Part shown: positions 1,456-52,422 of the stretch, piece after piece | Numbering within the stretch: the stretch's first letter is position 1 | How the letters are laid out: each line of letters starts with the position of its first letter | Source of the DNA: Acidobacteriota bacterium | Lineage (GTDB): Bacteria > Acidobacteriota > UBA4820 | Assembly (NCBI GenBank): GCA_029559035.1 | Contig: JAKQCT010000014.1 | Location: 11,520 to 75,519 of the forward strand | Direction of reading: 5' to 3' | DNA: 64,000 nucleotides | The notes under the pieces: generated by a model | Database searches by the model: none | The model's input: the letters and a program-made list of their open reading frames with translations, nothing else | What the model was told of the DNA's origin: nothing | Position numbers and translations under genes: made by a program

Positions 1456-1923
1456 TTGGCAACATGCCGCGCGCCGCGATGTTTATTTGAAGAAGGCATC
1501 GGGGGTATAATGATGATGCGCGGGGAGCGCTTGAAGAGGAGGACGAACATGGCCGAACGGCGAGGGGAAAAAGCCGGGTGGACGATTGGTTTTCTCGGAG
1601 GCTTCGCATGGGTTGCGGTTCTTTCCGTCGTTTTCCTCCTCAAGGGGAAGCCCTCGGCCGGGGCTATCGGACTTCTCCTGTTCAGCGCCGCGATAGTCGC
1701 GGTCCTGTATTTTGCCCCGTGGCGTCATCCGAGGACGAGCGCCTGGAAGCTGATGCTGGTGCCATACTTTTTTCTTGCGCTCTCTTTCGCGTGGGGAGCC
1801 TGGGCCTACGGCGGCCTTGCGCCGCTGGGGCTCGAATGGTGGAACATCGTCTGGTTCGTGCCCCTTCTGCTTCCCTTTTTCACGGGCGGGAACAGAAAGT
1901 GGTCTGACGGAGGTAACGGCTGA
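1456..1923 (+). CDS. Small integral membrane protein (hypothetical). The true start is probably the internal ATG at 1510 (MMMRGERL).
   Basis: It has four predicted TM segments (GFLGGFAWVAVLSVVFLL, AIGLLLFSAAIVAVLYF, LMLVPYFFLALSFAWGAWAY, WWNIVWFVPLLLPFF). Its stop overlaps the next gene's start as ATGA. Confidence 0.4.
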   Translation: MATCRAPRCLFEEGIGGIMMMRGERLKRRTNMAERRGEKAGWTIGFLGGFAWVAVLSVVFLLKGKPSAGAIGLLLFSAAIVAVLYFAPWRHPRTSAWKLMLVPYFFLALSFAWGAWAYGGLAPLGLEWWNIVWFVPLLLPFFTGGNRKWSDGGNG

Positions 1924-2945
1924 TGGAAGCTTTGAAACTCCTCTCCACTCTTTTCCCCATGGCTCTCGCCGCGGGCATAAACATCTACGCGACGATACTC
2001 ATCGCGGGAGCATCATTGAGGCTCGGGCTGATCGATGACCCTCCCGAAGCGCTCCGGATCTTCGAATCGTGGCCGATACTTATCACCGCGGGCGTTTTCT
2101 ACCTGCTCGAATTCTTCGCGGACAAGATCCATTTCATCGACGATATCTGGGATTTCATCCATACTTTCGTCCGCCCCATAGGCATTTCCGTCCTGGTCCT
2201 GGCGTCCGTGTCAACGCTCGATCCGAACGTGGCGGTCTTCGCGGCGATCGCGGCCGGCGGGGTTTCTTTCGTTTCCCACACGGCGAAAGCAGGGACCAGG
2301 ATGTCCATGAACGTGCTCAGCCCCTTCGAGAACTTCAAGAACATAGCGGTGAGCCTTCTCGAGGATATCTTTTCCGCGGGGCTCGTTTTCATGGCGATGA
2401 AGTACCCGTACTTCACCGCGGCCGTCGCCCTCGCGATCTTCGTGTTCCTTCTCGTGATGCTTCCGATCCTCTTCCGCTGGATGAAGTTCATCTTCACCGC
2501 GGTCTTCCTGAGGCTCAAGTCTTACGCGGCCCGAGTGGAGATCCCGGACGTACCGCCGGGGGGGCAGATTAGACTTCTGGATCACGAGAAGCCTTCCGTC
2601 TCTTCCAAGTGCAAATCGCAGGGCGTCCCCAGTGCCGGAGGCCGCAGGGGATTCCTCTCCGTTTTCCCCGGAAAGATGGTTTTCACTTACAGGAAATGGT
2701 TCCGGGACCGCGCCTGGACCCTCTTGAAAGCGGACATCGAGGGCGCCTATATCAGGAGAAGGCTGCTCGTGGATGTGCTCGAGGTCCACTACCTGAATGC
2801 GAAAGGGAAAAAGAAGACCGCGAGGTTCGTCTTTTACAAGGACCGTTCGCCGCTTCTCGAAATGATCGGGGCAGTCCTGGAGATCCCGTCCGACAAGAAC
2901 GGGGCCGGAGGCGCCTTTTCCCCGGCGGAAGCGTCCGCCGGCTGA
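1923..2945 (+). CDS. Polytopic membrane protein (DUF4126-like) with a C-terminal soluble extension
   Basis: The protein is 340 aa. The N-terminal 190 aa have multiple TM helices (MEALKLLSTLFPMALAAGINIYATILIAG...) and resemble the DUF4126 family as I recall it. The C-terminal 140 aa are basic and soluble. Confidence 0.45.
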   Translation: MEALKLLSTLFPMALAAGINIYATILIAGASLRLGLIDDPPEALRIFESWPILITAGVFYLLEFFADKIHFIDDIWDFIHTFVRPIGISVLVLASVSTLDPNVAVFAAIAAGGVSFVSHTAKAGTRMSMNVLSPFENFKNIAVSLLEDIFSAGLVFMAMKYPYFTAAVALAIFVFLLVMLPILFRWMKFIFTAVFLRLKSYAARVEIPDVPPGGQIRLLDHEKPSVSSKCKSQGVPSAGGRRGFLSVFPGKMVFTYRKWFRDRAWTLLKADIEGAYIRRRLLVDVLEVHYLNAKGKKKTARFVFYKDRSPLLEMIGAVLEIPSDKNGAGGAFSPAEASAG

Positions 2946-3061
2946 ACCCGTTCTTCGTAACCGCATGTCGTGCCGCCAGGCAACCGGCGTCCGGCGGTGT
3001 GCCGCATTTTTGCAAGCGGGGCGGGGATTTGGTAAAGTATAGCTTGGGAGAAGCAGAAGAA

Positions 3062-3364
3062 ATGGACGATCAGGAGCTTTTCAAGGTCACATGCCCGCAC
3101 TGCAGGGCTCTTCTGGAGATAGACCCGCGGAACAAGCTTGTCGTCGGAGGCGAAGCCCCGCCCGCTCCCAAGGAAGGCCTCTCATTCGACGAGAGGCTGA
3201 AGAAACTGGAGGAAGACAAGAAGAACGCCCAGAGCAAGTTCGAGGAGTCCGTCCGGGCGGAAAAAAGCAAGAAGGAAGTGCTGGAAAAGAAGTTCAGGGA
3301 GCTTTCGGAAAAGGCGAAAGATAGCAAGGATATGCCCATGAAGAGGGATATCGATCTCGATTGA
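3062..3364 (+). CDS. Small zinc-ribbon (CPHC) and coiled-coil protein, hypothetical
   Basis: MDDQELFKVTCPHCRALLEID... is followed by a Lys/Glu-rich coiled-coil tail. GGAGAAG lies upstream of the ATG at 3062. It is the only protein-like part of track ORF 2609..3364. Confidence 0.4.
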   Translation: MDDQELFKVTCPHCRALLEIDPRNKLVVGGEAPPAPKEGLSFDERLKKLEEDKKNAQSKFEESVRAEKSKKEVLEKKFRELSEKAKDSKDMPMKRDIDLD

Positions 3365-3379
3365 CGGAGGAAATGAAAG

Positions 3380-3901
3380 ATGAAGATCGTCAAAGTGGCG
3401 CTGATAATCATTCTCGCGGCCGCCGTGCTCGTCTCCTGCAACAGGAAGAAAGTGGAGCCGCCCAAGGAAGTGGATGTGTTCTCATGCAACACGGCCGAGA
3501 GGGTCGTGGCGAAGGAACTCGTGACCGTCGACAAGGGAACGTCCGTCGACGGCGACGGCTCCATCATGATCGCTACGGCGGAACCCGTGACCGTGCGTTT
3601 CTTCGAAGCCAAGCTTCCCGGGGAGAACTGCAAGTACACTTATAAAGTGAAGATGAAGACCGACACTCTCAACGGGGACGCCTACCTCACGATGGACGTG
3701 AATTATCCCAGCGGCGGAAAGCAGACCGTCCAGCAGGACATCCAGAGCTATCTCTCGGACACGAACGACTGGACACCGATGGAGATAACCATCTCGGCGC
3801 CCAACCAGAAGCCCGCTTCCGTCACTCTCAACGTCATCGTCGACGGCGACGGGATGGTGTGGGTTGACGACCTGCACCTCATCGCGACGCCCCTGGGCTG
3901 A
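3380..3901 (+). CDS. Lipoprotein (signal peptide with LVSC lipobox), hypothetical
   Basis: MKIVKVALIIILAAAVLVSCNRKK shows the type-II signal peptide and lipobox Cys. The mature domain has an all-beta composition. Confidence 0.55.
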   Translation: MKIVKVALIIILAAAVLVSCNRKKVEPPKEVDVFSCNTAERVVAKELVTVDKGTSVDGDGSIMIATAEPVTVRFFEAKLPGENCKYTYKVKMKTDTLNGDAYLTMDVNYPSGGKQTVQQDIQSYLSDTNDWTPMEITISAPNQKPASVTLNVIVDGDGMVWVDDLHLIATPLG

Positions 3902-3903
3902 TC

Positions 3904-4737
3904 GTGCCTTTCAAGCTCAAGGTCTATCACAGCCCCGATTCGGACGACGCCTTCATGTTCTACGGCATCTCAGAGGGCCTGCTGAAGGACCCTTCGCTGG
4001 AGGTCTCGTGCGAGCTCATGGACATCCAGAGCCTGAACGAGAAGGCGCTTAAAGGGGAGATAGACTGCACCGCGATATCTTTCCACGCGTACGCGCACTG
4101 TTTCAGGGACTATCACATACTCGCGCAGGGCGCCTCCTTCGGGGACGGGTACGGGCCCCGGCTGATCGCGAGTACTCCCGTCAGGCTTGAAGATCTGAAA
4201 GGCCGAAAGGTAGCCATGCCCGGTGCGCTCACCACCGCCACGCTGGCTTTCAGGATGCTCGGCATCGATTGCGAAGAGATAATGGTCCCTTTCGACAGGA
4301 TCATGGACGAAGTACGGGAAGGGCGCGCGGACGCGGGTCTTCTCATCCACGAAGGTCAGCTCACATACGCCGCCGACGGGTTCCATCTTGTCCTGGATCT
4401 CGGAGAGTGGTGGAAGGAGAGGACGGGCCTTCCTCTGCCTCTGGGCGGGAACGTCATCAAAAAAAACCTTGACCCTTGCGTCCTGAAGGGCTTCCCCCTG
4501 CTTTTCAGAAGGTCGATAGAGTACTCCTTGGATAACAGGGAAAAAGCCCTCGCTTACGCGAAGCAGTTCGGCAGAGGGCTGACCTGGGAAGACGCGGACC
4601 GTTTCGTTGACATGTACGTTAACAAGTGGACCCGCGGATACGGCGAAACAGGGAAGCTCGCGGTCGGAAGGTTCCTCGATGAGGCGTTCGGGATGGGGCT
4701 GATACCCGAAAAGGCGGAACCCTCTTTCCTCGATTGA
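3904..4737 (+). CDS. MqnA/MqnD (VitK2_biosynth) family protein, MqnD-like (futalosine-route menaquinone biosynthesis)
   Basis: The N-terminal KLKVYHSPDSDDAFMFYGISEG resembles the MqnD-type motif (GxSPCPNDTFxFYAL) that I recall. The protein is 277 aa with a periplasmic-binding-protein-like fold composition and a GTG start. Confidence 0.5.
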   Translation: MPFKLKVYHSPDSDDAFMFYGISEGLLKDPSLEVSCELMDIQSLNEKALKGEIDCTAISFHAYAHCFRDYHILAQGASFGDGYGPRLIASTPVRLEDLKGRKVAMPGALTTATLAFRMLGIDCEEIMVPFDRIMDEVREGRADAGLLIHEGQLTYAADGFHLVLDLGEWWKERTGLPLPLGGNVIKKNLDPCVLKGFPLLFRRSIEYSLDNREKALAYAKQFGRGLTWEDADRFVDMYVNKWTRGYGETGKLAVGRFLDEAFGMGLIPEKAEPSFLD

Positions 4738-4745
4738 GCTTTTTG

Positions 4746-4776
4746 TTGACAAAAGGTGGTGTTTCAAGGCGATAAT
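4746..4776 (+). promoter_or_regulatory. Putative sigma70-type promoter for cheY-cheA (TTGACA-N19-GATAAT)
   Basis: TTGACA at 4746-4751 and GATAAT at 4771-4776. The 19-nt spacer is suboptimal. The next ATG is 17 nt downstream. Confidence 0.3.
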
Positions 4777-4793
4777 ATGATCTTGGAGTTGGG

Positions 4794-5162
4794 ATGAAGA
4801 CCAAGATTCTAGTGGTGGAAGACAGCGGACCGATGAGGAGCCTCATTACCGCCGCGCTCGAAGAACATCTCGATGTCGACGTTTACGAGGCGGAGAACGG
4901 CTTCGCGGCGCTCAAGCTGATCCCCGACAACCAGTTCAAGGTCATCGTCACGGATATAAACATGCCGGACATCAACGGGCTGGAACTGATCGTTTTCCTC
5001 AGGCAGCATCCAAATTTCAAGGACGTCCCGATCCTGATAATCTCCACCGAAGCCGGTGAAGAAGACCGCCGCAGGGGTCTGGAGATAGGCGCGAACGGCT
5101 ACCTCGTGAAGCCGTTCACCGAGGGCCAGCTCGTGGAAACGGTCCAGAAGTTCCTCGTCTGA
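4794..5162 (+). CDS. cheY: CheY-like single-domain response regulator
   Basis: The 122-aa receiver domain contains ILVVEDS, the phospho-acceptor DINMPDINGLE and LVKPF. Confidence 0.9.
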   Translation: MKTKILVVEDSGPMRSLITAALEEHLDVDVYEAENGFAALKLIPDNQFKVIVTDINMPDINGLELIVFLRQHPNFKDVPILIISTEAGEEDRRRGLEIGANGYLVKPFTEGQLVETVQKFLV

Positions 5163-5171
5163 GGGGCGGCA

Positions 5172-7235
5172 ATGGAAAAACCCCAGGTCAAGGCGATCAA
5201 GGATTTCATCGGCGAAGCGGAGGAGATCCTCGAATCTCTCAGCGAAGATGCCGAGAGCGCCAGGTCGCAGTTCGAAGCCGGCGGCAAGATCCGTCCCGAC
5301 ATAATAAACAAGATATTCAGGGAGATGCACTCGCTCAAAGGGCTTGCGTCGATGCTCGCCCTCGAGAAGATCACGGTCGTCAGCCACGACATGGAAAGCC
5401 TTCTCGACAAGGTGCGGATGGGGAAGGTCAAGTTCGGGCCTCCCATATTCGAGATCCTTGATGAATCGAGGAAGGTCCTGAGGCAGCTGGTCGTGGAAGT
5501 CGGACAGGGTGGAGAGAAAAGCGGCACCGAAGACATACTTGCCAAGATCTCCGCCGCGTCAGGCGCGCCGCCAAAGCCCAAGGACCCTCCCAAACCGAAA
5601 TTAAGGCTCGAGGAGGAGACGCTCAAATCCTTCACCGAATACGAAGAACACCGCCTCAAGGAGAACCTCGAGGAGGGAAACAACATATTCGCGATACAGG
5701 TGGGTTACGACTTCACCGATTTCGACACCCGGCTGAGAGCTCTTACCGAGGCTCTGAATGAAAAGGGTGAGGTTATCAGCACGCTCCCCGTCATGGATCC
5801 GTCGCTGCCCGAAGGCATCCATTTCAGGCTGATCTTCGGGACGGACCTGAGCGAGGCAGGGGTGAAGGCGTTATCCGGGGTTTCTGAAGGGACCGTCACC
5901 AACCTGCTGGAGGCAGGAGGAGAGAGCGCGGAGCCTTCCGCCAAAAAGGAAGAGAGAAAAAACGAGCCTTTGCGCGAGGCGGAACCAGCGGAGGCGAGAG
6001 AAGAAGGAGCTGCCGTCTCGGATGAGGCCGACGAGATAAAAGGGATCTCCAACACCGTGAAGGTCGATATCTTGAAGCTCGACGAGGTGATGGGTCTGGT
6101 CGGCGAGCTAGGGCTTATCAGGGCTTCTTTCAGGAAGATCGCCGACAACCTCGCGGGCGTCGAGGAGATGGAGGAGACGAGGCAGGACCTGGTCCGCCAT
6201 GTAAGGTCCATGGAGAAAAAACTGGAAGAGCTTCAGCGGTCGATAATCGACATAAGGATGGTCCCCATAGGCCAGATATTCACCAAGCTCAACAGGACCG
6301 CCCGCAGGCTGGCCCGCCAGTCGGGCAAGGAGGTCTCCATCCAGCTTTTCGGGGGCGAGACCGAGCTTGACAAGAGAATCATGGACGAGCTGGTGACCCC
6401 CCTCGTCCACCTGATAAGGAACGCCATAGACCACGGCCTCGAACCCACGCAGGACAGGCTCAAGGCGGGAAAATCTACCGAAGGCAGCCTCGCGATATCG
6501 GCCTTCCACAGGGGGAATTCGATTGTCATCGAGGTGACCGACGACGGAAAAGGGCTCGATTACGAAAAGATAAGAAAGGTAGCCGTTGAGCGGGGTATCA
6601 TCAGCGAAAGCGCGCTGCTCTCCCCGGAGGAATGCCTCGACCTGATCTTCCAGCCGGGGTTCTCGTCGGCCGACAAGGTGACCGAAGTCTCCGGTCGGGG
6701 CGTGGGCCTGGACGCGGTCAAGACCACCGTCGAGGGGCTCAAAGGCTCCATCTCGGTGTGGACAGAAAAAGGGAAAGGCTGCACTTTCCAGATCATCCTT
6801 CCGATAACCCTCGCGATAATCCAGTCGCTCATAGTCAGGTGCTGCGAGCAGTTCTTCGCGATACCGATATCCTCGATCGTAGAAAGCTTCAGGATAAGCC
6901 CCGAGGAAATAGAATTCGTGGACCAGAAGGAGGTATATAACCTCAGGGGGATAACGCTTCCGATAATGAGGCTGGAGAACCGCTTCGCGCTGAAAAGGAA
7001 TGACGGCCGCGCTCTCAGCTCTCTGTTCGTCGTCGTGGCGAAGCGCGGCGACAAGGTGGCGGGGATAATCGTGGACGAGCTCGAAGGGGAGCAGGAAACG
7101 GTCATTCACCCGATAGGCCAGAAGCTGGGGCACATTCCCGGCATCGCGGGAGCCACGGAGATCGGGGAGAACCAGGTGATCCTCGTGATAGACACGGCGG
7201 GGCTGCTCGCTCCGCTGGAGGCCGTCCGTGTTTAA
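5172..7235 (+). CDS. cheA: Chemotaxis histidine kinase CheA (Hpt-dimerisation-HATPase-CheW-like)
   Basis: The Hpt motif MHSLKGLASMLAL is followed by a PKPKDPPKPK linker, the HATPase N-box LIRNAIDHGLE, G-boxes and a C-terminal CheW-like domain (FFAIPISSIVE...IIVDELEGEQE). Confidence 0.92.
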   Translation: MEKPQVKAIKDFIGEAEEILESLSEDAESARSQFEAGGKIRPDIINKIFREMHSLKGLASMLALEKITVVSHDMESLLDKVRMGKVKFGPPIFEILDESRKVLRQLVVEVGQGGEKSGTEDILAKISAASGAPPKPKDPPKPKLRLEEETLKSFTEYEEHRLKENLEEGNNIFAIQVGYDFTDFDTRLRALTEALNEKGEVISTLPVMDPSLPEGIHFRLIFGTDLSEAGVKALSGVSEGTVTNLLEAGGESAEPSAKKEERKNEPLREAEPAEAREEGAAVSDEADEIKGISNTVKVDILKLDEVMGLVGELGLIRASFRKIADNLAGVEEMEETRQDLVRHVRSMEKKLEELQRSIIDIRMVPIGQIFTKLNRTARRLARQSGKEVSIQLFGGETELDKRIMDELVTPLVHLIRNAIDHGLEPTQDRLKAGKSTEGSLAISAFHRGNSIVIEVTDDGKGLDYEKIRKVAVERGIISESALLSPEECLDLIFQPGFSSADKVTEVSGRGVGLDAVKTTVEGLKGSISVWTEKGKGCTFQIILPITLAIIQSLIVRCCEQFFAIPISSIVESFRISPEEIEFVDQKEVYNLRGITLPIMRLENRFALKRNDGRALSSLFVVVAKRGDKVAGIIVDELEGEQETVIHPIGQKLGHIPGIAGATEIGENQVILVIDTAGLLAPLEAVRV

Positions 7236-8022
7236 GGAGTTCTACGGCTTCAGGGAACGCCCGTTCGGAAAGACCCCCGACCCGAGGTTCCTATTCCCCT
7301 CCGCGGAGCACGAAGAGGCGCTGGCGAGGCTCGAGTACGCCATAGAGGAAAGGGACATGGCCGTCCTGACCGGGGAGATAGGTTCGGGAAAGACGACGAT
7401 CTCCAGGGCCCTCATGGACAGGAACGACAACGACCATTTCATTCTGATCGTAAACCCGAGGCTGAGCCCCAACCAGCTCCTGAGGGAGATAGCGAAAAGG
7501 CTCGACATCGAACCGAAGCATTACAGGGCCGACCTGCTCGACGACATCTCCACCAGGTTCATGGAGATGAACGAGGAGAAGAAGGCCGTGGTCCTCGTCG
7601 TGGATGAAGCCCAGCTGATACCTGGGAAGAACACTTTCGACGAGCTCAGGCTGCTCTCCAATTTCCAGCTCGACGACTGCAACCTCGTCTCCATAATCCT
7701 CATCGGACAGCCGGAACTGAGGGAAAGGCTCAAGCATTCCACATATTCGGCGCTCAGGCAGAGGATCGGAATGTGGTACCACCTCGGCAACCTGAACGCG
7801 GAGGAGACTTCCGCCTACATCAAGCACAGGATGAAGGTCGCGGGAGGAGGAAGGGACATCTTCAGCGCCGAGGCGACGAGGCTCATAGCCGAAAAGACGA
7901 AAGGAATACCGAGGCTGATAAACTCCCTCGCGACAAACTCGCTTCTCACGGGCTTCCAGAAAGAGGAAAAGCCGATCTCCGCCGCCACCGTCAAAGAGGC
8001 CGCGGCGGAAATGGTCTTTTAG
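7228..8022 (+). CDS. ExeA/GspA-like AAA ATPase (AAA_22 type) consisting of the ATPase domain only
   Basis: FYGFRERPFGKTPDPRFLFPSAEHEEALARLEYAI matches the ExeA N-terminal signature. It also has the Walker A motif GEIGSGKTT and a Walker B motif VVLVVDEAQ. The GTG start overlaps the cheA stop by 8 nt. Confidence 0.75.
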   Translation: MFKEFYGFRERPFGKTPDPRFLFPSAEHEEALARLEYAIEERDMAVLTGEIGSGKTTISRALMDRNDNDHFILIVNPRLSPNQLLREIAKRLDIEPKHYRADLLDDISTRFMEMNEEKKAVVLVVDEAQLIPGKNTFDELRLLSNFQLDDCNLVSIILIGQPELRERLKHSTYSALRQRIGMWYHLGNLNAEETSAYIKHRMKVAGGGRDIFSAEATRLIAEKTKGIPRLINSLATNSLLTGFQKEEKPISAATVKEAAAEMVF

Positions 8023-8032
8023 GGAATACCGT

Positions 8033-8716
8033 TTGGAAAAACCCACTAAAGCCGAACAGGCCGCTGGATATACATTCAACGACTCCTCGTTGCTGAGCCA
8101 GGCGCTGTCCCACAGCTCCTTCGCGGAAGAGAAAAGGGGAGGGCGGAAGTTCTCCAACGAAAGGCTGGAATTCCTGGGCGACGCCATAATCGGATTCCTC
8201 GTTGGTAAGGCCGTCTACACACATTTCCCCGAGGAGGACGAAGGAGTGCTTTCAAGGCTGAAGGCCCACTGGGTATCCACATCCGCGCTCGCCGTCATTT
8301 CCGAAGAAGCGGGCGTAAGGGACGCCCTGATGATGGGCGCCGGCGAAGAGAAGAGCGGCGGCGGCGGGAATCCCAGGAACCTTGCGGGAGCCCTTGAAGC
8401 ATTCCTCGCTGCGATCTATCTTGACGGGGGCATGGCCGCCGCGGAAAAGTTCGTTTCGAGGTTCTGGGATGAAAAGATCGGGCGCGAAGGGACCGGAGTG
8501 CTGAGACTTGACTCGAAGACGCTGCTTCAGGAAAAGCTTCAACTGCGGTTCAAGGAGATCCCGGAATACCTGGTCGAGGAAGACGGTTCGGAATTCCTTG
8601 CCACGGTCCGCTTCAGGGGTAAAAACCTCGGAAATGGAAGGGGAAACAGCAAGAAAAAGGCGGAACAGGAAGCCGCCGCGAGAGCTCTTGAAAACGACAG
8701 TTTTGATCATGAGTGA
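8033..8716 (+). CDS. rnc: Ribonuclease III
   Basis: It carries the RNase III signature ERLEFLGDA, plus EAFLAAIYLDGG and a C-terminal dsRBD. The start codon is TTG (or one nearby). Confidence 0.9.
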   Translation: MEKPTKAEQAAGYTFNDSSLLSQALSHSSFAEEKRGGRKFSNERLEFLGDAIIGFLVGKAVYTHFPEEDEGVLSRLKAHWVSTSALAVISEEAGVRDALMMGAGEEKSGGGGNPRNLAGALEAFLAAIYLDGGMAAAEKFVSRFWDEKIGREGTGVLRLDSKTLLQEKLQLRFKEIPEYLVEEDGSEFLATVRFRGKNLGNGRGNSKKKAEQEAAARALENDSFDHE

Positions 8717-8739
8717 TTAAGAAAGAGAGGTGACCGTTC

Positions 8740-10710
8740 ATGAGGAAGAGAATTCTGCTTCTCATTTCCGTTACGCTCCTGGCATTCTCGGGCGTATCGG
8801 CACAGACGAGCCAGTCCGGCCTTGAACAGACGCTCGCCGGGATAACCGCGGAAAAATACCCGGGATCCCCCGCCGTCATAGTTTTGGACGAAACGAAGGT
8901 GGATGTCGAAGATTCGGGGCTTTCCCATGTAAACCGCAGGATGGTGGTGAAGGTCCTCAACGAGGAGGGATGCCTGAGGTATTCCACCTACAGGCTGGAT
9001 TACGACCCGGCTTCCTCGTTCGCCGAGATAAGGTCGATCGAGACGATAAGGGACGGCAAGAGGGAGAAGCTTCCCGCAGGCAGCATCCTCGACCTGCCCC
9101 AGCCCCAGATGATGATCTACTGGGGCCCCAGGATGAAGCTGGCTTCCATCCCGAGGCTCAACCCGGGAGACGCCGTGGAGATCAACACCTACTCCAAGGG
9201 CTTCGTCATCGCGTACCTTACCGCCGGAGAGGCGGCGCGGGACGACGAGAGGTACATCCCCCCCATGAGAGGCCATTATTATGACGTGGTGCTCTTCCAG
9301 GGAGACCTGCCGATCGTCAAGAAAAGCTACGAACTGATCATGCCGAGGGACAAGTTCCTGAACGCCAGGGTATATCACGGCGAGGTCGGCTTCGAGACCT
9401 CCTACGACAAGGAGAAGGTGAGATACCTCTGGTCGAAAGAGAACGTCTCTCCCATCGAGGAAGAACCTAGAATGGTCGAACCCACCGATGTCGCAACAAA
9501 AGTGGTGCTCGCCACTGCGGAAGACTGGCCCGCGAAGTCCAGATGGTTCTACGAGGTGAACGAGAACGCCAAGGCGTTCGAATGGGACGGCGACATCAAG
9601 AAAAAAGTGGACGAGCTGACCTCCGGCCTCGGGACCGACGACGAAAAGCGGAAGGCGCTGCTGGCTTGGGTCGCGAGGGAGATCCGCTATTCCGGGATAT
9701 CCATGGGCAAGGGCGAAGGGTACACCCTTCATCCGGGCACGATGACGTTCAACGACAGGGCGGGCGTCTGCAAGGACATCGCAGGGATGCTCATCACGAT
9801 GCTTAGGTGCGCCGGATACACCACCTATCCCGCCATGACCATGGCCGGCGCCAAGGTCGAGGACGTTCCTGCCGACCAGTTCAACCACTGCGTCGTAGCG
9901 GTCAAGCTCGGGCCAGGGCAGTACAAGCTCTACGACCCCACCTGGTGCCCCTTCAGCCGGGAGGTGTGGTCTTCCGCGGAAAAGCCGCAGAACTATGTCA
10001 TCGGGACTCCCGAGGGCGAAGTTCTCATGGAGACACCTCTAGCTCCTCCTGAGGACAATTTCATCAAGATCGTTTCAACGGGAAGGCTTGATTCCGACGG
10101 AAATCTCGCTGGCAGGATGCACATCACCGGGGGAGCCTACAGCGAAACGAACCTGGTCTGGGCCGTCACTTCTACGGACAAGAACGAGGTGAGGCACGTT
10201 TTCGAGGAGTGGATCCGCAGGATCGCACCCCAGGCGGAACTGGTCTCCTTCGCCAACGAAGATCCCGTGGACGTGGACAAGCCGTTCTTCATCACCCTTG
10301 ATTACAGGGTCCCGGGTTACGCCATCAAGGCCGGCAGGGAACTCCTGTTCAAGTCTCCCGCTGCGCAGAACATCCTTTCGAACAGGCGCCTTACCGACTT
10401 CGTGGCCGCCGTCGAGGGCGACAAGAGGGAACACGACATATACCTCAGGTCCACCAGGAAGTTCATCTTCGAAGAAAAGATCGAGCTTCCCGCCCTCAGG
10501 AAGAATACCGATGCCAACCATCCCGACCCGGTAGACGGCCCTGCCGCGGCTTTCGACGCGAAGGCTTCCTCGTCGGGCAAGTTCTTCGAGCTCAAGGAAA
10601 CATTCTCCGTGAAGAAAAAAATAGTCCCGGCCTCGGATTACGGAAACCTGAAGGAGGCCTACGAAGCAATGAAGGACTTCGGATCCCGCTATTACAGGGC
10701 GGCGTACTAG
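8740..10710 (+). CDS. Secreted DUF3857 and transglutaminase-like (Cys-protease core) domain protein
   Basis: It has a signal peptide (MRKRILLLISVTLLAFSGVSAQ). The transglutaminase core motif NDRAGVCKDIAGMLITMLRCAGY contains the catalytic Cys, and the downstream FNHCVVAV...YDPTW region contains the His and Asp. Confidence 0.7.
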   Translation: MRKRILLLISVTLLAFSGVSAQTSQSGLEQTLAGITAEKYPGSPAVIVLDETKVDVEDSGLSHVNRRMVVKVLNEEGCLRYSTYRLDYDPASSFAEIRSIETIRDGKREKLPAGSILDLPQPQMMIYWGPRMKLASIPRLNPGDAVEINTYSKGFVIAYLTAGEAARDDERYIPPMRGHYYDVVLFQGDLPIVKKSYELIMPRDKFLNARVYHGEVGFETSYDKEKVRYLWSKENVSPIEEEPRMVEPTDVATKVVLATAEDWPAKSRWFYEVNENAKAFEWDGDIKKKVDELTSGLGTDDEKRKALLAWVAREIRYSGISMGKGEGYTLHPGTMTFNDRAGVCKDIAGMLITMLRCAGYTTYPAMTMAGAKVEDVPADQFNHCVVAVKLGPGQYKLYDPTWCPFSREVWSSAEKPQNYVIGTPEGEVLMETPLAPPEDNFIKIVSTGRLDSDGNLAGRMHITGGAYSETNLVWAVTSTDKNEVRHVFEEWIRRIAPQAELVSFANEDPVDVDKPFFITLDYRVPGYAIKAGRELLFKSPAAQNILSNRRLTDFVAAVEGDKREHDIYLRSTRKFIFEEKIELPALRKNTDANHPDPVDGPAAAFDAKASSSGKFFELKETFSVKKKIVPASDYGNLKEAYEAMKDFGSRYYRAAY

Positions 10711-10719
10711 GAGGCGAAG

Positions 10720-12606
10720 ATGAAGAACAACGCTTTGAAAATAATCCTGCTTGTCCTGGCTGCTGCCCTCCTGAGCCTCTCTTTGTCGGCGCAGCCCGTT
10801 TACGGTTCAGCGCCCGGAGCGAGAGAGTATCCTGACGCCGACGTCCTGATCCTTTCGGAAAAGATATCCCTCACCCTCATGCCGGACGGCAGGATCGAGG
10901 AGAGCCGGCACAAGGTTGAAAAGGTCCTCACATACAACGGGATAGACACGATCGGCGACCCCAAGATCGCCTTCGACACGGCGACCCAGGCGCTGGCCAT
11001 TGACAAATGCACGACCTTCAGCCCGGACGGAAGGGTGACCGAGGCGCAGAAGAACAGCTTCACGGAGATGACGCCATTCGAGCTCGAGAAGTCCCCGGAC
11101 CACGTTTCGATAAGGCAGATGGTAGTCACGAAGGTGGGAATGGAACTGGGTTCGGTCGTGGAGTTCGGGTACACGGTAAAAGACACCAAGCCCTGGAGGA
11201 AATACCTGCAGGGAAAGATCCTCGTTCAGAACGAATACCCGACTCTGGTCAAGGAGATCACGATCAGGGTCCCCCGCGGGACCTCCCTGCTGTTGTCGGG
11301 AGGAGTCGCCGTGGAGCGGTCCGACGAATCGGACTTCACGGTGTACAGGGCCGCGCTCAGGGACCTTCCGGCGCTCAACTTCCACGAGTTCGTGAATCAC
11401 GAAGAGTACCTTCACCCCTGTCTTGTCTATTCCACCGCGCCCGGTTGGGCCGCGCAGGCGGCTCATCTCGGCACGATGTTCAGTGAAGCCGCGGGCAAAA
11501 GGTCCGGAGCGATGGAGAAAAAGGCCAAAGAGCTGACCGAGAAAAAGCTTTCCGACAGAGAAAAGGCCCTTTCGATCCACGATTTCGTGACGACGAAGAT
11601 GAGGGCGGTCGATTGGGGGCTTGACGCCTTCGACTATTCAGCCAGGGACGCGTCAAGGGTCTTCGAAACCAGCGGGGGACACAAAATGGACCTCGCCGTG
11701 CTCTTATCGGCGATGCTGGATTCTGTCGGGCTAAAAGCGGAACCATGGCTCGTGATGAACGCCCCGTTCGGCGATGAAGAAGCGAAGATCCCGGCTGTTT
11801 CGCTTTTCGACGATGTCGTCATGACGGTGGGTACCGGGACAGGGACCCTCTTTCTAGGCTCTGATGCTCCCGCTTCGTCGGCATCCCTCAGGGACTGGAC
11901 GGGGTCCAGGGCGCTGAAGATATCGTCTGCCGTATCAGGATTGTCGGTTTTTCCCGCTCTTTCCGAGGGCAATTCGGCGAAATGCGCTTTCTCGCTCGAA
12001 CCCCTGGATGGCGCGGTGGTGCGGGGGACAGGTTCTGTCCTGCTTACAGGAGGCTACGCGAATTACGAATCCGCGAGGACCGGGATCGAAGGAGAGATAA
12101 TCCCATACGTGAAGGGTGCCCTCCCGGACGCGGCCGATATAAAAGTCACCGCCAGGAACATCTCGGCCGACCACCTCGACGCGGAAGTGGAATTCACCGT
12201 TGACCTGAAGAAAGCCGCAGGGAAGACGGGTTTGCATGCCGTCCTGAACACGGGCCTTCCCGGGGCGTCCATCGTGAACTGCAACCATCTTGCGGGCAGG
12301 GAAAAACGAACTTCGCCGATGATCCTCTCGATGACCGGAAATGAAAGCTACGAGATAAGGATGAAGCTCCCCGACTGTTTTGCCGGAGCCGGCAACAGGC
12401 TCGTGTCTTTCAGTCACGACACGCCCGCGCTGAAAGCGTCGCAGGATTTCACCGAAGGGGAAGGAAAGGTCACAGTCAGCTACTCCGTTTCGACTGACCG
12501 GGAGATCATCTCCGCCGGCGACTACGGGAAAGCCAGGCAGGCCGCGCTATCTCTTCTGACGGAGCCGGCTAGGAAGCTGGTCCTCGAGGAGAAAAAAAAG
12601 AAGTAG
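10720..12606 (+). CDS. Secreted DUF3857/DUF3858-family partner protein lacking the catalytic core
   Basis: It has a signal peptide (MKNNALKIILLVLAAALLSLSLSAQ). Its size and composition are like the preceding gene, but it has no Cys-His-Asp core. This is the typical paired arrangement of the family. Confidence 0.55.
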   Translation: MKNNALKIILLVLAAALLSLSLSAQPVYGSAPGAREYPDADVLILSEKISLTLMPDGRIEESRHKVEKVLTYNGIDTIGDPKIAFDTATQALAIDKCTTFSPDGRVTEAQKNSFTEMTPFELEKSPDHVSIRQMVVTKVGMELGSVVEFGYTVKDTKPWRKYLQGKILVQNEYPTLVKEITIRVPRGTSLLLSGGVAVERSDESDFTVYRAALRDLPALNFHEFVNHEEYLHPCLVYSTAPGWAAQAAHLGTMFSEAAGKRSGAMEKKAKELTEKKLSDREKALSIHDFVTTKMRAVDWGLDAFDYSARDASRVFETSGGHKMDLAVLLSAMLDSVGLKAEPWLVMNAPFGDEEAKIPAVSLFDDVVMTVGTGTGTLFLGSDAPASSASLRDWTGSRALKISSAVSGLSVFPALSEGNSAKCAFSLEPLDGAVVRGTGSVLLTGGYANYESARTGIEGEIIPYVKGALPDAADIKVTARNISADHLDAEVEFTVDLKKAAGKTGLHAVLNTGLPGASIVNCNHLAGREKRTSPMILSMTGNESYEIRMKLPDCFAGAGNRLVSFSHDTPALKASQDFTEGEGKVTVSYSVSTDREIISAGDYGKARQAALSLLTEPARKLVLEEKKKK

Positions 12607-12621
12607 GGTCGTTTCCATAAG

Positions 12622-13785
12622 TCATGAACCGACGGATCTTCTGAGGGCGGCTATGTTCTCCAGCCGCCCTCTTATTTCAACTTCCAGGAAATCGGTGCCG
12701 TACTCTTCCCTGAGTACCGTGAAAAGGTTCCTCATCTTCAGGAATTCGATGATCCTTGAGTAGGGGACGGATATCGTCGTTCCTCCGAAACGCTTGTGGA
12801 CTTCGCATGCGATCGCGGCTTTCAACGTTCTTACACCGGAGCCTGTCTTAGCCGAGACCGCCAGTGCCCCGGGGAAAAGCGATAAAGCCCTATCCCTGAA
12901 GGAGGAAGGGGAGATGTCCGTCTTGTTGAGGACGGTGATGGTCGGGATGTCCGCCCCTCCAAGCTCCGACAAAGACTTTAAGACAATATCGCCTTGTTCC
13001 TCGAAATCGGGATGATTGATGTCCAGCACGTGAATGACGAGGTCGCTGACGGCTATCTCTCCGAGCGTGGAGCTGAATGATGCCACGAGGCTGTGGGGAA
13101 GCTTGCGTATGAACCCGACGGTATCTACTAGAAGGACTTCCTGGAGGATCCCGGGAATGTGGACCCTTCTGAAGGTGGTGTCCAGAGTGGCGAAAAGACG
13201 GTTCTCTGAAAAGAGCCTCGAGTTCGTCAGCGCGTTCATGAGGGAAGATTTTCCAACGTTGGTATAGCCGGCGAAAGCCGCGACGAAGGCGTTCTCCCTT
13301 CTCCCGGCCTGCACTTTCCTTCTTTGAGCCAGGTCCGCTATCTCTTCGGAGAGCCTCGATATCCTGGCTCTTATGACGCGCCTGTCGGTTTCCAGCTGGG
13401 TCTCTCCCACGCCCCTGGTGCCGATGCCTCCCGCCTGTCTTGACAGGTGCCCCCACGCTCTCGTCAGCCTGGGAAGAAGGTAGTTGTACTGCGCCAGCGA
13501 GACCTGCGCCTGCGCCTCCCTGGTCCTGGCCCTTTTGGCGAATATGTCGAGGATCAGGCCCGTCCTGTCAAGGATTTTGACGCCTATCGCCTTTTCAAGA
13601 TTCCTGATCTGGGCGGGGGAAAGCTCGTCGTCGAAGACAACGAGCTGGATCTTCTTTTCCCTGCATGTCCCGGCTATCTCGTTCGCTTTTCCCTCGCCTA
13701 TGAAAAAAGCCGGGTCTACCGACTGTTTTCTCTGGATCACCCTTTCTTTTTCATCGGCTCCCGCGGTGTCAGCCAGAAGCGACAA
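12622..13785 (-). CDS. hflX: GTPase HflX
   Basis: The N-terminal domain reads FFIGEGKANEIA...LSPAQIRNLEKAIGVKILDRTGLILDIFAKRARTREAQAQVSLAQ. The G-domain has the P-loop GYTNVGKSSLMNALT, plus DTVGFIRKLPH and NKTD. The track start is TTG. Confidence 0.88.
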   Translation of the reverse strand: MSLLADTAGADEKERVIQRKQSVDPAFFIGEGKANEIAGTCREKKIQLVVFDDELSPAQIRNLEKAIGVKILDRTGLILDIFAKRARTREAQAQVSLAQYNYLLPRLTRAWGHLSRQAGGIGTRGVGETQLETDRRVIRARISRLSEEIADLAQRRKVQAGRRENAFVAAFAGYTNVGKSSLMNALTNSRLFSENRLFATLDTTFRRVHIPGILQEVLLVDTVGFIRKLPHSLVASFSSTLGEIAVSDLVIHVLDINHPDFEEQGDIVLKSLSELGGADIPTITVLNKTDISPSSFRDRALSLFPGALAVSAKTGSGVRTLKAAIACEVHKRFGGTTISVPYSRIIEFLKMRNLFTVLREEYGTDFLEVEIRGRLENIAALRRSVGS

Positions 13786-16590: not shown

Positions 16591-19500
16591 ATGGACCTGA
16601 GGAACTCTCTTGCGGCGTTCGTTCCGAGGACGGTATGGCCCCTCGTGGGCGGCGCCGGGAACGGATCGAGGAAAAGCGGATCGGTACTTTTCGCGGACCT
16701 GGCGGGCTTCACCAGGCTTACCGACAGCCTCGCGAGCATCGGAAAAGAGGGCGCAGAGGAGCTCACCAGGATACTCAACGAATTCTTCTCGTCCATGATC
16801 AAGATAGTCCACGAGGACGGAGGCGACGTCCTCAGGTTCGGCGGCGACGCGATGACGATCTTCATTCCGTCGGGTCCCGGCGAGGCGCTGAAGACTGCCC
16901 TGAGGCTGCAGGCCGAAACGGCGAAGTACGGGGCGGTGGAGACGAGGGCGGGAGTTTTCGCGCTCGGGATGAAAATAGGCGTTTCATGCGGCGACACCGT
17001 GTTCTCGATAGTGGGCGACGGGTCCGTGGGGTTCGACTATTTCGCGGCGGGAAGCGCGCTGGACCTGTCGGCGGAGTGCGAACACCGGGCGGGCCAGGGC
17101 AATATCGTCGTCTGCCCGAGGGCGTCCGAACAAGTCGATTTCAAGGGCCTCAGGACCGTCGCTCTCGAAGGCGGGTTCACACTGGTGGAGGGGCCGGAGA
17201 AAGAAGCGCCGCTGGAAAATGGCCCCGCGCGTTCGGAAGAACTCCGGCCTCCCTCTGAACAGGCGCTCTCGGAGTTCCTTCCGTTCTACATAAAGGACAA
17301 GCTGGAAACGATCGAGTCGCTCCTGGTAGGCGAGCACAGGCGCACGACCGTTCTCTTCCTGAGCTTCAAGGCGACGGATTACGAACACGACCCGTCGGCG
17401 GTGGAAACGGCGCGAGTCGTATACAGGGAGGCGGCCAGGCTCGTAAAGAAGTACGGGGGCTTCATAAACAAGATAGACATGGGCGACAAGGGGAGCAAGG
17501 TCCTGGCCATCTTCGGGAGCCCTCTTGCCGTGGAGCGCCAGGAAGAGATGGGGTGCAGGTGCGCGCTCGACATAGTCTCGAGCCCGGAGCTTTCGGGAAT
17601 AAACGAGAACATCAGGATCGGTCTCACCGTGTCCAGCGTTTTTTCGGCATACGTGGGTTGTCCCGAGAGGCGCGAGTACACGGTCATGGGCAACGGGATA
17701 AATCTGGCTGCGAGGCTGATGGCGGCCTGCGCCCCCGGGTCCGTGCTCGCTTCCGAAGAGGTGTACGAAAAGGCATCGTCGGCGATCGAGTTCGACGTCC
17801 TTCCGCCCATAAACGTCAAGGGCAAGACGGAGAAAGTGGCTGTCTTCGCGCCCACGAGGAAGACCCGGGGGGCGTCCGAGGCATCGGGCTGTTTCGTGGG
17901 GAGAAAGAAGGAACTTTCAGAAGCGCTTGAAGCTTTGAGGACGGGATCAAGCTCGCCGGGCATCGCTGTCACGGGAGCGGCCGGCGTGGGGAAGAGCCTG
18001 TTCCTTTACAGCCTGAAAGACAGGTTGCATGAGGAAGGACTGGAGTGCATCGTCACGAACCTGGCGTCGTACGACCGTGACAAGTACATGGGCGCCTGGC
18101 GGGGGATCATCCTCCATTGTCTCGGTGCCGGGGATGGCGGAAGCGCCCCCGTGCGGGTGGATGCGATCCTCTCCCAGATGAACGAGGAGGACAGGGAGTA
18201 CCTTCCTCTTTTCAACGACATCCTCAACATCGAAGTTCCCGAGAACGCCTCCACGAAAGCGCTTTCGTCGAAAGACAGGAAGGACGTATTCTTCGCCATA
18301 ATCTCCAGGCTCATCCTAAGAAACACCGCGGACGCTCCTCATCGGATCTTCATTGATCACATGGATTACGCAGACCCGAGCTCGGTCGAGTTCCTGGGAG
18401 AGATCGCGACCGACCTCAAGGGGACGCAGTTGAAGATAGCCTTCACTCTCAGGGATTCTGCCTCCCAGCTGCTCAAGGATGCCGCCGAAGGGTTCGGGAC
18501 GCTCCAGCTCGGCCCTTTCAGCGAAGAAGAGGTCAGGTCATTCCTTCTCGACGTAGCCGGATTCGCTCCGCCGACCGAAACATTCGTTTCTTTCCTTCTG
18601 AAGAAGACAGGGGGGAACCCGAAATTCCTGGAAGAGGTCCTCCAGATAATGACGAGGGAACAGCTGGCCTTCAAGGGGCCGTCATCTCTGCTCGAGGTGG
18701 ACGAGGACCACCTTTCGTCAGCGAGCTTTCCCGACACTCTGCAGGGCCTTTTCCTCTCCAGAGTGGAAAGCCTTCCTGAGACCGAAAGGCAGATCCTCAA
18801 AACTGCCTCTATACTCGGCCCTTCCTTCTCGATCCATTCGCTCAGCTCCATTCTGGAAAAACCGGCCGTCGACGTCGCGGACGAAATATCGGCCATGGAA
18901 AGCTCCGGGTTGATAAAGATGGACACTTGGGGCGAGCGGCCGTATGCCTCGTTCACCGACAACCTGCTGAGGGACGCGATCTACGATTCACTGAATTTCC
19001 AGATCAGGAGGGAGATGCACAGAAAGGTGGCAGAATCGCTTGAATCGTTGGGCAGCGAGGAGCCGAGAATAAACCCCGTGCTGGCAAGGCATTTTGAATT
19101 TGCGGGAGAAGAGGAGAAAGCTCTCGGGTATCTCTGGAAATCCGCTGAATTTTCGAGGTCCTTCTACGATAACAGGTCGGCTTTCGATTTTCTCGGAAGG
19201 TTCGTGGCCATCTCGGAAAAGAGGGGAAAGACGCCCTCGGCCGACCGGCAATTCCTTGACGCTCTGATGTATTACGCGGACGTCCAGCAGGAACTCGGAA
19301 GGATACAGGAGGCAGACCTTCTATACAAGAGGATCCTGGACGAGATAAAGGAAGTAAGCCAGGACACGGTGAAGGCCACTTCGAGACTTGCCGACAACAA
19401 GAGGAGGACGGGGGCGGTCAAGGAATCTCTCGAACTATTCGACAAGGCCCTCGACGGAGCTAAACAGCTCAAGGATGAAGCCTTGCAGTGCAGGATCTTC

Positions 19501-23800: not shown

Positions 23801-24639
23801 GCGAGAATCCCTCCGCTGCTGAAAGAAAGGCCAGGAGGAAGATCTCCCCTTGTCAAGGAATAGGCGTAGGGGGGATACCCTCCGGTGGCTGTTATCCTCT
23901 GAGAATAAGGCTCTCCGAGGACCGCGTCGGGAAGGTCGGACGGTTCTAACATTATCACGGGGCACTGCCGCCTGACCGTGAGCAGTACCTCCGTTCCGTT
24001 GGAGCAGGGGTAAGGGGAGGAAGAATCTTCCACATACACGTAAACCTGCCATTCGCCTTCTTCCGTGGGAGTGCCGGAGACCACGCCCGATGAAGTCATC
24101 GAGATCCCGGGAGGCCAGCCCCATGAAGGCTCGAGGGGAAGTGAATCGAAGAAAGAATAAGGAGGAGTGCCTCCGCTTGCCGAAAAGGATTGATGGTAAT
24201 ATGATCCGACATAGGCGTCGGGAAGGGATTCGGGGGCTATCATCAGAGAAGAACACGGGTCCTCGATCGTGAGCGTGTAGTTCCTGGAGCCCGTGGTGTA
24301 GCAGTAATAGTCGAAAGCGGAAACCTCGAAATTGTATGTCCCCCCGGAATATGGAGTTCCCGATAGGAGCCCGCTGTAGCTGTCCAGGCTGAAACCGTAC
24401 GGTAGGGAGCCGGAAGAGACGGAGAAGGAGTAGCTTCCCATGCCGCCCGTCGCTGAAATGGTCGCATTGTAAGGGACATAAACCTCTCCGTTCGGAAGAG
24501 AAGAGGGAGATACGACTATCGGATCGGCACATGACTGGGCGAAAGCGTGCCCGCAGGCCGCGAGGCATAGAACAAAGACGATCGCCGAGACGATGCACGC
24601 TTCAGGACGCTTTTCTTCAACAAACAGTTTTTCTTTCAT
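20836..24639 (-). CDS. Giant secreted multidomain protein B (about 1267 aa): signal peptide, three Cys-bounded He_PIG-like putative Ig repeats, Lipase_2-like alpha/beta-hydrolase core with Asp at the nucleophile elbow, Ig-like and IPT-like domains, and a conserved IPT-like C-terminal module
   Basis: The internal ATG at 24639, with a GGAGG RBS, gives MKEKLFVEEKRPEACIVSAIVFVLCLAACGHAFA as a signal peptide. The 44 aa upstream in the track ORF are non-protein-like. The protein is paralogous to gene A across the hydrolase and C-terminal regions. Confidence 0.8.
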   Translation of the reverse strand: MKEKLFVEEKRPEACIVSAIVFVLCLAACGHAFAQSCADPIVVSPSSLPNGEVYVPYNATISATGGMGSYSFSVSSGSLPYGFSLDSYSGLLSGTPYSGGTYNFEVSAFDYYCYTTGSRNYTLTIEDPCSSLMIAPESLPDAYVGSYYHQSFSASGGTPPYSFFDSLPLEPSWGWPPGISMTSSGVVSGTPTEEGEWQVYVYVEDSSSPYPCSNGTEVLLTVRRQCPVIMLEPSDLPDAVLGEPYSQRITATGGYPPYAYSLTRGDLPPGLSFSSGGILAGTPEEPGKFTFYVSAVDANRCSGEMVYAVSVDCLTGNGTLSGRAGIRDEESGALCHLNGDGVTGIVTASGASGSVYTTDLVNGSYSFGTIPAGNYSLSAIINYTDHILYDAELLSYGCAAPSQKRIVKTLTIPPRTAAVKCDTHNAADLTLPPPMVMLHGIFDCYSKWYASDGSDADYYRHFDNYARSLGRISFTPNYNWWSGSWSLRVSEVLDQVSQDMSSLCASGMPPYILVTHDMGGLVARALGSGPHSGDPVVRKMEKAYLLGVPNSGADYNARLGRSSLLGPNSIIRYFNEVYPDFGALDVHAVAGTGGWWNTDNNDGVVSTGSVFSVRRIACLGEDCVIYPALTLDSGPGHLFNYDHWELGSPGSAEDIFGLLSGEGKIEARRPEAPVGGVGWGTVGHTSTAMTTNAGSLLARSEMSYPFTVSKCDGIAIVINLTQGSAEFSFVDPAGAESLIRDGLFVKAAPAPGNCSLKVLPGPSGVSFSAVVIDNSIFGISGYLTSQNLLPGETTIVRVDKKGDWSLVTPQSVQAFLYDKNGTLLRTVALDEKGGFFSGLLSAPDAQGSYEVFIQATGTFNGAGFTRVEFETMNVLGTSRLFTGAFADFPSDSDGDGKYDSIVFSCSAALPSAGYHTVAADLYDSRGNFVSHSSASLEADSQGTKSFDLPFDLGGVHCGQFSGKFMVSGLKILDGDDLRPLDVWNEEISTGLYQAGTFDCSSAPLSPVISNIAPSKVTVGTAVNIAITGKNFDEGATLVFDQSISVVGSQRYDNRVFFATISVSGSSAPGFRDVKIINPDGRSGILKDVLLVAADTPPMVSFESPSDGSVVSGTVNVTANAVDDVKIESVSFALDGAHQATVSAFPFIWSWNSGASGLGTHVVSATAVDSSGKETSAQSVVSVVRAPVITSVSKKGDPFRFVVSGANLQPGVSVYINGDPWTNVRWKNSGRIVIKGGPALKAKVPKGMPVTLNIVNPDGGSQSTVWKW

Positions 24640-24723
24640 TTCCGCCTCCCGCAAAAGGGTTCTTGCTGAAACTAAGCTAGCACCGCGGCTGATATCTGTC
24701 AATAGCGAAAACGCTGAAGCGGT

Positions 24724-24756: not shown

Positions 24757-24775
24757 CGAACCGAATGTCAAACGG

Positions 24776-52408: not shown

Positions 52409-52422
52409 CTGCCACCCCCGGA

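Follow-up and report, generated by a model that had tools for sequence, protein, structure and literature searches.

The 64-kb stretch of DNA analysed here (the window) belongs to contig JAKQCT010000014.1 of an Acidobacteriota metagenome-assembled genome (MAG) and carries, at 4794-8022 on the forward strand, three tightly packed genes encoding CheY, CheA and an AAA+ ATPase of the ExeA/GspA type. We find that, in one class of che clusters spread over Acidobacteriota, Nitrospirota and Desulfuromonadales, the gene for an ExeA-type ATPase lies next to cheA almost without exception, and that the window is a reduced derivative of this class, the Esn and probably beta-group type, rather than a full member of it. 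Our best explanation is that the trio descends by gene loss from a cluster of the kind known as Esn in Geobacter, and that the ATPase may work as a partner of the CheA signalling complex. We give this explanation as a whole a probability of about 0.55, a compromise between two parts: the identity of the locus and its evolutionary origin as a reduced Esn-type cluster, of which we are confident, and the mechanistic role of the ATPase as a CheA-complex partner, which we propose tentatively and at somewhat less than even odds. The encoded pathway is most likely a non-flagellar chemosensory one, of the 'alternative cellular function' kind, and not flagellar chemotaxis.

Organization of the cheY-cheA-ATPase locus

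The first gene, cheY (4794-5162, + strand), encodes a 122-amino-acid (aa) protein with a receiver domain only (Pfam Response_reg, E 1e-27). Nine nucleotides (nt) separate it from cheA (5172-7235, +), whose 687-aa product is a five-region histidine kinase made up of a P1 Hpt domain, a linker, P3, P4 and P5; Pfam places Hpt at residues 9-102, the dimerisation domain H-kinase_dim at 293-361, HATPase_c at 411-545 and the CheW-like P5 at 552-680. The third gene (7228-8022, +) encodes a 264-aa cytoplasmic ExeA/GspA-type ATPase (Pfam AAA_22, E 2.6e-24) of a che-linked subfamily, and its GTG start overlaps the 3' end of cheA by 8 nt (overlap letters GTGTTTAA). Within this putative translational-coupling junction (7217-7235, +), a GGAGG at 7217-7221 stands 6 nt ahead of the GTG at 7228, and the cheA stop codon TAA occupies 7233-7235. 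The equivalent start codon in 80 other genomes is almost always ATG; we regard GTG as the correct start here because the ATPase N-terminus, FKEFYGFRERPF, matches residue 1 of all homologues (M[FY]xxF[FY]G...PF), residue for residue. The original prediction, made from the letters of the window, had described this packing, with its 9-nt gap and 8-nt overlap, and sequence and Pfam both bear it out. Judged from gene structure, it can be taken as established that cheA and the ATPase gene are co-transcribed and translationally coupled at this locus.

By their motifs, all three proteins are clearly predicted to be catalytically competent. CheA has its phospho-accepting histidine (H53, in HSLKG), an N box (HLIRNAIDHG, 413) and the G1 (DDGKG, 457) and G2 (GRGVGLD, 508) motifs. 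The CheY translation keeps the E9/D10 acidic pair, the D54 phospho-acceptor, S84/T85 and K106, while in the ATPase the Walker A residues (G49-x2-G52-x-G54-K55-T56-T57), the Walker B pair D126-E127 and R229 are invariant across 20 homologues, and further conserved arginines are retained. None of the three genes contains a frameshift. The exact ATPase protein also occurs, in the same gene order, on contigs of the MAGs GCA_035341055.1 and GCA_032942435.1 and of several metagenome assemblies. Database labels place its close homologues in Acidobacteriota, Thermoanaerobaculia or Thermoanaerobaculaceae.

Conservation of the cheA-ATPase pair across phyla

To survey relatives of the locus, we used an ATPase alignment to scan GTDB, with each species represented by a single genome. 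The 80 loci recovered had 48-66% identity and belonged to Thermoanaerobaculia, Vicinamibacteria, Nitrospirota/Thermodesulfovibrionales and Desulfuromonadales, the last with Geobacter, Geomonas and Oryzomonas among them. Neighbours were counted by tblastn mapping, the cheA count being limited to loci with enough upstream DNA. In 74 of the 75 species loci counted, the gene directly upstream of the ATPase gene was a cheA running in the same direction. The exception is L028, a Thermoanaerobaculia contig with the order PATAN-CheY-ATPase-CheW (2276-5419), in which cheA is missing between cheY and the ATPase gene. On the other side, cheW directly followed the ATPase gene in 71 of 73 loci, both exceptions falling in the window's own lineage. 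A PATAN-domain protein was encoded upstream in 47/56 loci, a HEAT-repeat protein downstream in 52/58 and CheR downstream in 49/58; genes for methyl-accepting chemotaxis proteins (MCPs) lay inside the cluster in 21/58.

The junction itself is conserved. An identical 8-nt overlap between cheA and the ATPase gene was present in 31 loci, Nitrospirota and Desulfuromonadales among them, and most of the other junctions fell between -1 and +12 nt. Recurrence of the overlap, together with the overlap and close packing in the window, supports the co-expression of the trio put forward in the original prediction. Pairwise distances of the ATPase and CheA were correlated across loci (r = 0.89), with the ATPase the slower-evolving of the two (mean pairwise distance 44% vs 54%); identity of the window proteins to full-cluster members was 48-58% for the ATPase and 36-45% for CheA. 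Adjacency in 74/75 species and the same overlap in 31 loci from several phyla exceed what chance would produce, and we conclude that the coupling of cheA to this ATPase subfamily is ancient and nearly universal. The original prediction had named non-synteny of the two genes in relatives as part of its refutation; the survey came out the opposite way.

The full cluster in relatives

Genes were called and annotated with Pfam in loci from Thermoanaerobaculia (L008), Nitrospirota (L010) and Geomonas edaphica (L055) and from complete Geobacter genomes (L092/L093). The full order starts with a PATAN(DUF4388)-REC gene, REC being a receiver domain, followed by CheY, CheA, the ATPase, a CheW with an N-terminal extension and (CheY, CheW); it continues with a REC protein (Zn-ribbon-REC in Geobacter), a 650-750-aa HEAT-repeat protein, CheR, CheB and (a GAF protein, CheY). 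Between one and three MCP genes follow the first cheW in Nitrospirota/Thermodesulfovibrionales and Vicinamibacteria, as at L049 11553-16527, L056 11585-18683, L065 8419-13995 and L067 12561-14942; the clusters of Geobacter and Thermoanaerobaculia contain none.

By gene order, we infer that the full cluster is the Geobacter Esn cluster (GSU2212-GSU2224): the 13 genes of the Geobacter clusters analysed here agree with the series of locus tags from GSU2224 to GSU2212. The window cheY would then correspond to the GSU2223 position and the window ATPase gene to the GSU2221 position. Chan et al. 2017 list GSU2222 as CheA (esnC), GSU2221 as 'ATPase' and GSU2220 as CheW (esnB), with log2 values in electrode transposon sequencing (Tn-seq) of -2.8, -2.1 and -2.4, respectively (PMC5585712). 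Clean deletions of esnB, esnC, esnA (an unlinked GAF-MCP) and esnD (a diguanylate cyclase) abolished electrode colonisation and left Fe(III) oxide reduction normal, and the GSU2221 ATPase was not studied beyond Tn-seq in that work (PMC5585712). According to Tran et al. (PMC2577667), beta-group che clusters have no mcp genes, and unpublished knockouts are said to tie the beta-group cluster of G. sulfurreducens to expression of extracellular matrix.

The window locus resembles Geobacter Esn in its CheY-CheA-ATPase order, in protein identity (53% for the ATPase, ~40% for CheA), in an equally tight cheA/ATPase junction and in having no mcp gene in the cluster (PMC2577667). It differs in lacking the PATAN-REC protein, two CheW, the extra CheY, the Zn-ribbon-REC protein and the HEAT, CheR, CheB and GAF proteins, in having rnc directly downstream, and in its host, an Acidobacteriota MAG with no known electrode link.

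These relatives bear on the question of whether cheY and cheA are simply a fragment of an ordinary flagellar chemotaxis system whose remaining genes lie elsewhere, with the ATPase an unrelated hitch-hiker. CheA and CheY are indeed canonical in domains and motifs. A hitch-hiker, however, would not be expected beside cheA in 74/75 species from different phyla, nor would an overlapping junction that is itself conserved; the cluster type holds PATAN, HEAT and GAF proteins and not flagellar genes; the phenotype of the Geobacter counterpart is one other than motility (PMC5585712); and Pfam scans of open reading frames (ORFs) of at least 150 aa found no flagellar gene in the 64 kb. We consider a flagellar system very improbable.

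Multihaem c-type cytochrome genes adjoin the cluster in some relatives. Three of them stand right after cheW in the Nitrospirota MAG (L010 9613-14160), and in Geobacter one gene for a 711-aa multihaem cytochrome lies past the last cheY (L092 18704-20804; L093 18879-20804). Set beside the electrode-colonisation phenotype of Geobacter Esn, these neighbours make a link suggestive.

A reduced three-gene lineage

None of the other parts of the full cluster was found in the window. A Pfam search of all ORFs of at least 150 aa in the 64 kb gave no MCP, CheW, CheB or CheR. We also used phmmer to compare CheW, CheR, CheB, PATAN, HEAT and MCP-hairpin probes with every six-frame segment of at least 40 aa, and only the P5 region of cheA and cheY matched; as a check on sensitivity, the same MCP-hairpin probe recovers the MCP genes of related loci. 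Both searches confirm what the original prediction had noted, that MCP, CheW, CheB and CheR are absent, and the PATAN-REC, REC and HEAT genes are likewise missing from the window. A promoter and terminator scan of 1800-13000 returned sites no more frequently than shuffled sequence, leaving the ends of the operon undefined by this means.

The reduced form, with cheY, cheA and the ATPase gene only, was present in six loci (the window, L007, L012, L013, L095 and L096). Their ATPases share 63-67% identity and make up exactly one clade in a neighbour-joining tree that had no outgroup root, and the window CheY is 75-79% identical to those of the other reduced loci, compared with 48-55% for other phyla. 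In all six, the ATPase gene is directly followed by rnc at a spacing of -4 to about +210 nt (a 4-nt overlap in L095). In the window, rnc (8033-8716, +) begins 10 nt past the ATPase stop, and its RNase III product scores 204.8 bits against TIGR02191, above the cut-off. An MqnA-like gene of the futalosine pathway to menaquinone is the upstream neighbour in all four reduced loci for which genes were called (the window, L007, L095 and L096), on the opposite strand in L096; the window copy spans 3904-4737 (+; VitK2_biosynth, E 4.5e-64) and probably has no functional link to the che trio. The remaining flanking genes vary between the reduced loci. The che genes are thus linked to rnc in two phyla, after the ATPase gene in the reduced lineage and before the cluster in Desulfuromonadales, where rnc, a radical SAM gene, era and der lie directly upstream of the che cluster on the same strand (L092/L093 1698-5721 in Geobacter). 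This recurrence led us to consider a functional link with rnc as a possibility.

Because the full cluster is common to other Thermoanaerobaculia and to other phyla, we read the three-gene form as derived. The most parsimonious account is that it arose by reduction of a full Che cluster within a monophyletic, Thermoanaerobaculaceae-like group of Acidobacteriota, which implies at least two events, one loss upstream of cheY and one downstream of the ATPase gene. In such a history, PATAN-REC would have been lost on one side and the run from cheW to cheB on the other in a single Thermoanaerobaculaceae-like lineage, leaving cheY-cheA-ATPase and then rnc. The original prediction had presented the trio as a minimal module in its own right; as a primary design this gives way to secondary reduction.

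A reduced cluster might be a decaying one, the trio being the functionless leftover of a lost system, as the disappearance of most of the ancestral cluster from the locus would allow. We regard this as close to negligible, given that catalytic motifs are intact in all three proteins and reading frames unbroken, that six diverged species, whose domains are 58-76% identical, retain the arrangement, and that the trio shares an operon with the housekeeping gene rnc. P5, the CheW-like region, has also been maintained. Identity within the reduced lineage is 66-72% for P5 and 69-76% for P4, and changes at positions invariant in full-cluster CheAs number 4/27 in P5 and 7/55 in P4, so that P5 shows no excess. 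An intact and conserved P5 suggests that a partner is still used, whether unlinked CheW and receptors, some other P5 partner, or the ATPase itself.

The last of these partners leads to a receptor-less arrangement, in which the ATPase would replace MCP and CheW in the reduced lineage, controlling the CheA kinase through its ATP-dependent oligomerisation, and the three proteins would by themselves sense a cytoplasmic cue, for example nucleotide state or a ligand that alters ATPase oligomerisation. In its favour, exactly these three genes outlived at least two separate deletions or rearrangements and are intact in six diverged species, no MCP or CheW is encoded within 64 kb, and the conserved P5 must still bind something. 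Orphan MCP and CheW genes are common, however, and the cognate MCP of the Geobacter cluster, EsnA, is itself unlinked (PMC5585712); moreover, the ATPase coexists with CheW in 71/73 genomes, so there is no general substitution of one for the other. We therefore hold the receptor-less arrangement to be quite improbable.

An ExeA/GspA-type ATPase without an envelope-spanning part

Homologues of the ATPase are named 'ExeA family protein' or 'general secretion pathway protein A' in databases. We sought relatives in a representative library of 1.84 billion proteins and inspected the best 150 family representatives. The best-scoring ones outside the che-linked subfamily are proteins of 500-870 aa that combine an N-terminal ATPase with GspA_C39-like and PG_binding_1 domains, and the window ATPase is 41% identical over its full length (266 columns) to the N-terminal domain of a 667-aa PG_binding_1 protein. 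At 264 aa it has no transmembrane segment and no Pfam match to a GspA_C39-like or PG_binding_1 extension. It is thus, on sequence comparison, a true ExeA/GspA relative without the envelope-spanning part, in agreement with the original prediction, which had called it ExeA-like and lacking the periplasmic peptidoglycan-binding extension. It shares with canonical ExeA/GspA and MshM a homologous N-terminal AAA_22 domain and the N-terminal FGLxxxPF motif, and departs from them in lacking the transmembrane, C39-like and PG_binding_1 parts, in having no gspB or type II secretion system (T2SS)/MSHA neighbours, and in its linkage to cheA.

A second relative is the PEP-CTERM-associated (XrtA) ATPase of NCBIfam model TIGR03015, which has the same ATPase-only architecture at ~265 aa. 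The window protein aligns to this model end to end (protein 1-262 vs model 1-266 of 269) and scores 240.2 bits, below the cut-off of 324.5; no exosortase or PEP-CTERM genes lie nearby.

An AlphaFold2 model of the ATPase (pLDDT 89, pTM 0.82) has an AAA+ base, a helical lid and a short conserved N-terminal arm, with no further domain. The best Foldseek matches, at TM-scores of ~0.7, were the MuB filament of phage Mu (8xvb, E 5.5e-11, TM-score 0.72-0.77), archaeal and eukaryotic ORC/Cdc6 and transposon TnsC. A profile search of PDB sequences also returned MuB first (E 7.8e-5), with TnsC, both weak matches, and found no structure of an ExeA ATPase domain. As modelled, the protein would share only the AAA+ initiator/loader fold with ORC/Cdc6, MuB and TnsC, and DNA binding is not implied. 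AAA_22 also covers TniB, MuB and TnsC, and we considered a mobile-element origin; the lack of transposase genes, a stable chromosomal context and strict che synteny led us to reject it. Among the closest representatives are also proteins of 600-690 aa (P0241, P0250 and P0254) with two tandem ExeA-type ATPase domains, a layout that would fit self-association of the ATPase.

Candidate roles of the ATPase

MuB, TnsC and ORC/Cdc6 are nucleotide-dependent oligomerising switches or loaders and not unfoldases. Because its structural relatives behave in this way, we propose by analogy that the ATPase could oligomerise in an ATP-dependent manner and work with the CheA signalling complex as a partner, in assembly, as a scaffold or as a switch in kinase control. 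It would be produced in fixed proportion to CheA; CheA would phosphorylate CheY, and CheY would act on a non-flagellar target. ParA-like array-positioning ATPases in che operons, such as Vibrio ParC and Rhodobacter PpfA, offer a possible functional analogy, being accessory NTPases inside che clusters that organise the signalling complex; they have the deviant Walker A fold of ParA/MinD and not the AAA+ fold of the ORC/MuB/TnsC type, and there is no homology.

Canonical ExeA/GspA and MshM, for their part, drive the assembly of envelope machines. The corresponding role here would be that of an output, with CheY~P or CheA regulating the ATPase and the ATPase driving assembly of a secretin, a pilus or an exopolysaccharide exporter. 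The nearest relatives outside the subfamily are of the GspA type with GspA_C39-like and PG_binding_1 domains, the match to the PEP-CTERM-associated model is full-length, and in the reduced lineage the only single-domain CheY has stayed together with the ATPase. The Geobacter cluster, in addition, affects surface colonisation (PMC5585712) and possibly the matrix (PMC2577667). The full cluster also starts with PATAN-REC, and PATAN regulators bind the type IV pilus motor in Synechocystis (bioRxiv 10.1101/2021.06.11.447907). This gene is the sole, indirect hint of pili that we observed, and it is absent from the window.

Against an output role, no gsp (including gspB/exeB), pil, msh, T2SS or exosortase gene was found in the window or in the related loci for which genes were called; the ATPase has no membrane or periplasmic part and cannot reach a secretin as ExeA does; and a position between cheA and cheW, coupled to cheA, is typical of core-complex subunits and not of outputs. 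We rank membership of the core complex above an output role because of that coupled position and because there is neither a membrane or periplasmic part nor a secretion or pilus neighbour. The output role is unlikely in our estimation, and the protein is probably not a free-standing secretion ATPase. Of the original prediction of a non-flagellar output through pili or secretion, the first half stands as most likely, the Geobacter counterpart controlling electrode colonisation (PMC5585712), and the second finds no gsp, pil or msh genes to support it in the window or in the related loci with called genes.

Several points weigh against the explanation that we favour, namely reduction from an Esn-type cluster with the ATPase as a CheA-complex partner. 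The ATPase of L028 occurs without cheA, the only such case among 75 loci. The best 150 family representatives included no fusion of CheA to the ATPase; the long matches in this set were tandem ATPases or GspA-type proteins. The effect of GSU2221 in Tn-seq may be polar on esnB, and it is by gene order and locus-tag numbering, not by the GSU2221 sequence, that we place GSU2221 in this subfamily. We presume that the Esn-type cluster is the beta group, 'cluster 5', of Tran et al. 2008, which is probable on the basis of locus tags and the gene list of Myxococcus Che8. Finally, the Che8 cluster of Myxococcus xanthus reads, by locus tags, CheY-CheA-CheW-CheW-...-CheR-CheB-CheY with no mcp (PMC3945109). 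This seems to be the skeleton of the full cluster found here, and the HEAT-protein theme recurs in Che7/Cpc7. In Che8, though, cheA8 (MXAN_4758) adjoins cheW8b (MXAN_4757), apparently with no ATPase, as judged from locus tags and not from sequence (PMC3945109), and the ATPase would accordingly not be universal in this cluster type.

Relation to previous work

Pathways of the chemotaxis type often serve 'alternative cellular functions', and most of their accessory proteins are unexplained. What was already known of the present system is the cluster type (Esn, probably the beta group of Tran et al.) and the ATPase gene as an 'ATPase' entry in a Tn-seq table. In the literature that we searched, neither a conserved place for an ExeA-type ATPase in Che clusters nor the three-gene reduced form turned out to have been described, and a Geobacter review (PMC8396549) has nothing on this cluster.

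The natural minimal version of CheY, CheA and ATPase argues that these three form the functional core, and it provides a simple system for probing the role of the ATPase. It may also help to explain what the cytoplasmic ATPase domain does in ExeA/GspA secretin-assembly factors. Should the receptor-less arrangement be true after all, the Thermoanaerobaculaceae-like lineage would present, in pure form, a new input mode for CheA-class kinases, and the cytoplasmic domain of ExeA/GspA would in general be a signalling switch.

Other features of the window

Beyond rnc, two adjacent genes (8740-10710 and 10720-12606, +) encode paralogous secreted proteins with a DUF3857 domain and a transglutaminase-like core; they are also present in L007 and not in L095/L096. 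Scans of the whole 64 kb gave no tRNA genes and no Rfam families at the gathering threshold. The region at 50001-54000 has a G+C content of 0.48-0.50, compared with ~0.57 elsewhere in the window, and contains a DHH/DHHA1 phosphoesterase gene, a gene for a 207-aa protein without a Pfam match and several small ORFs, of which, by eye, one is thioredoxin-like and one has CxxC pairs.

Two large signalling proteins are encoded on the forward strand: a 1389-aa protein combining adenylate/guanylate cyclase, AAA_16 and TPR (MalT-like) regions (16591-20760) and an 833-aa Ser/Thr kinase-TPR protein (44427-46928). On the reverse strand, adjacent genes at 20836-24771 and 24776-29599 encode proteins of 1311 and 1607 aa with He_PIG and Big_7 Ig-like repeats, plus TIG in the shorter one, which are probably surface or adhesin proteins.

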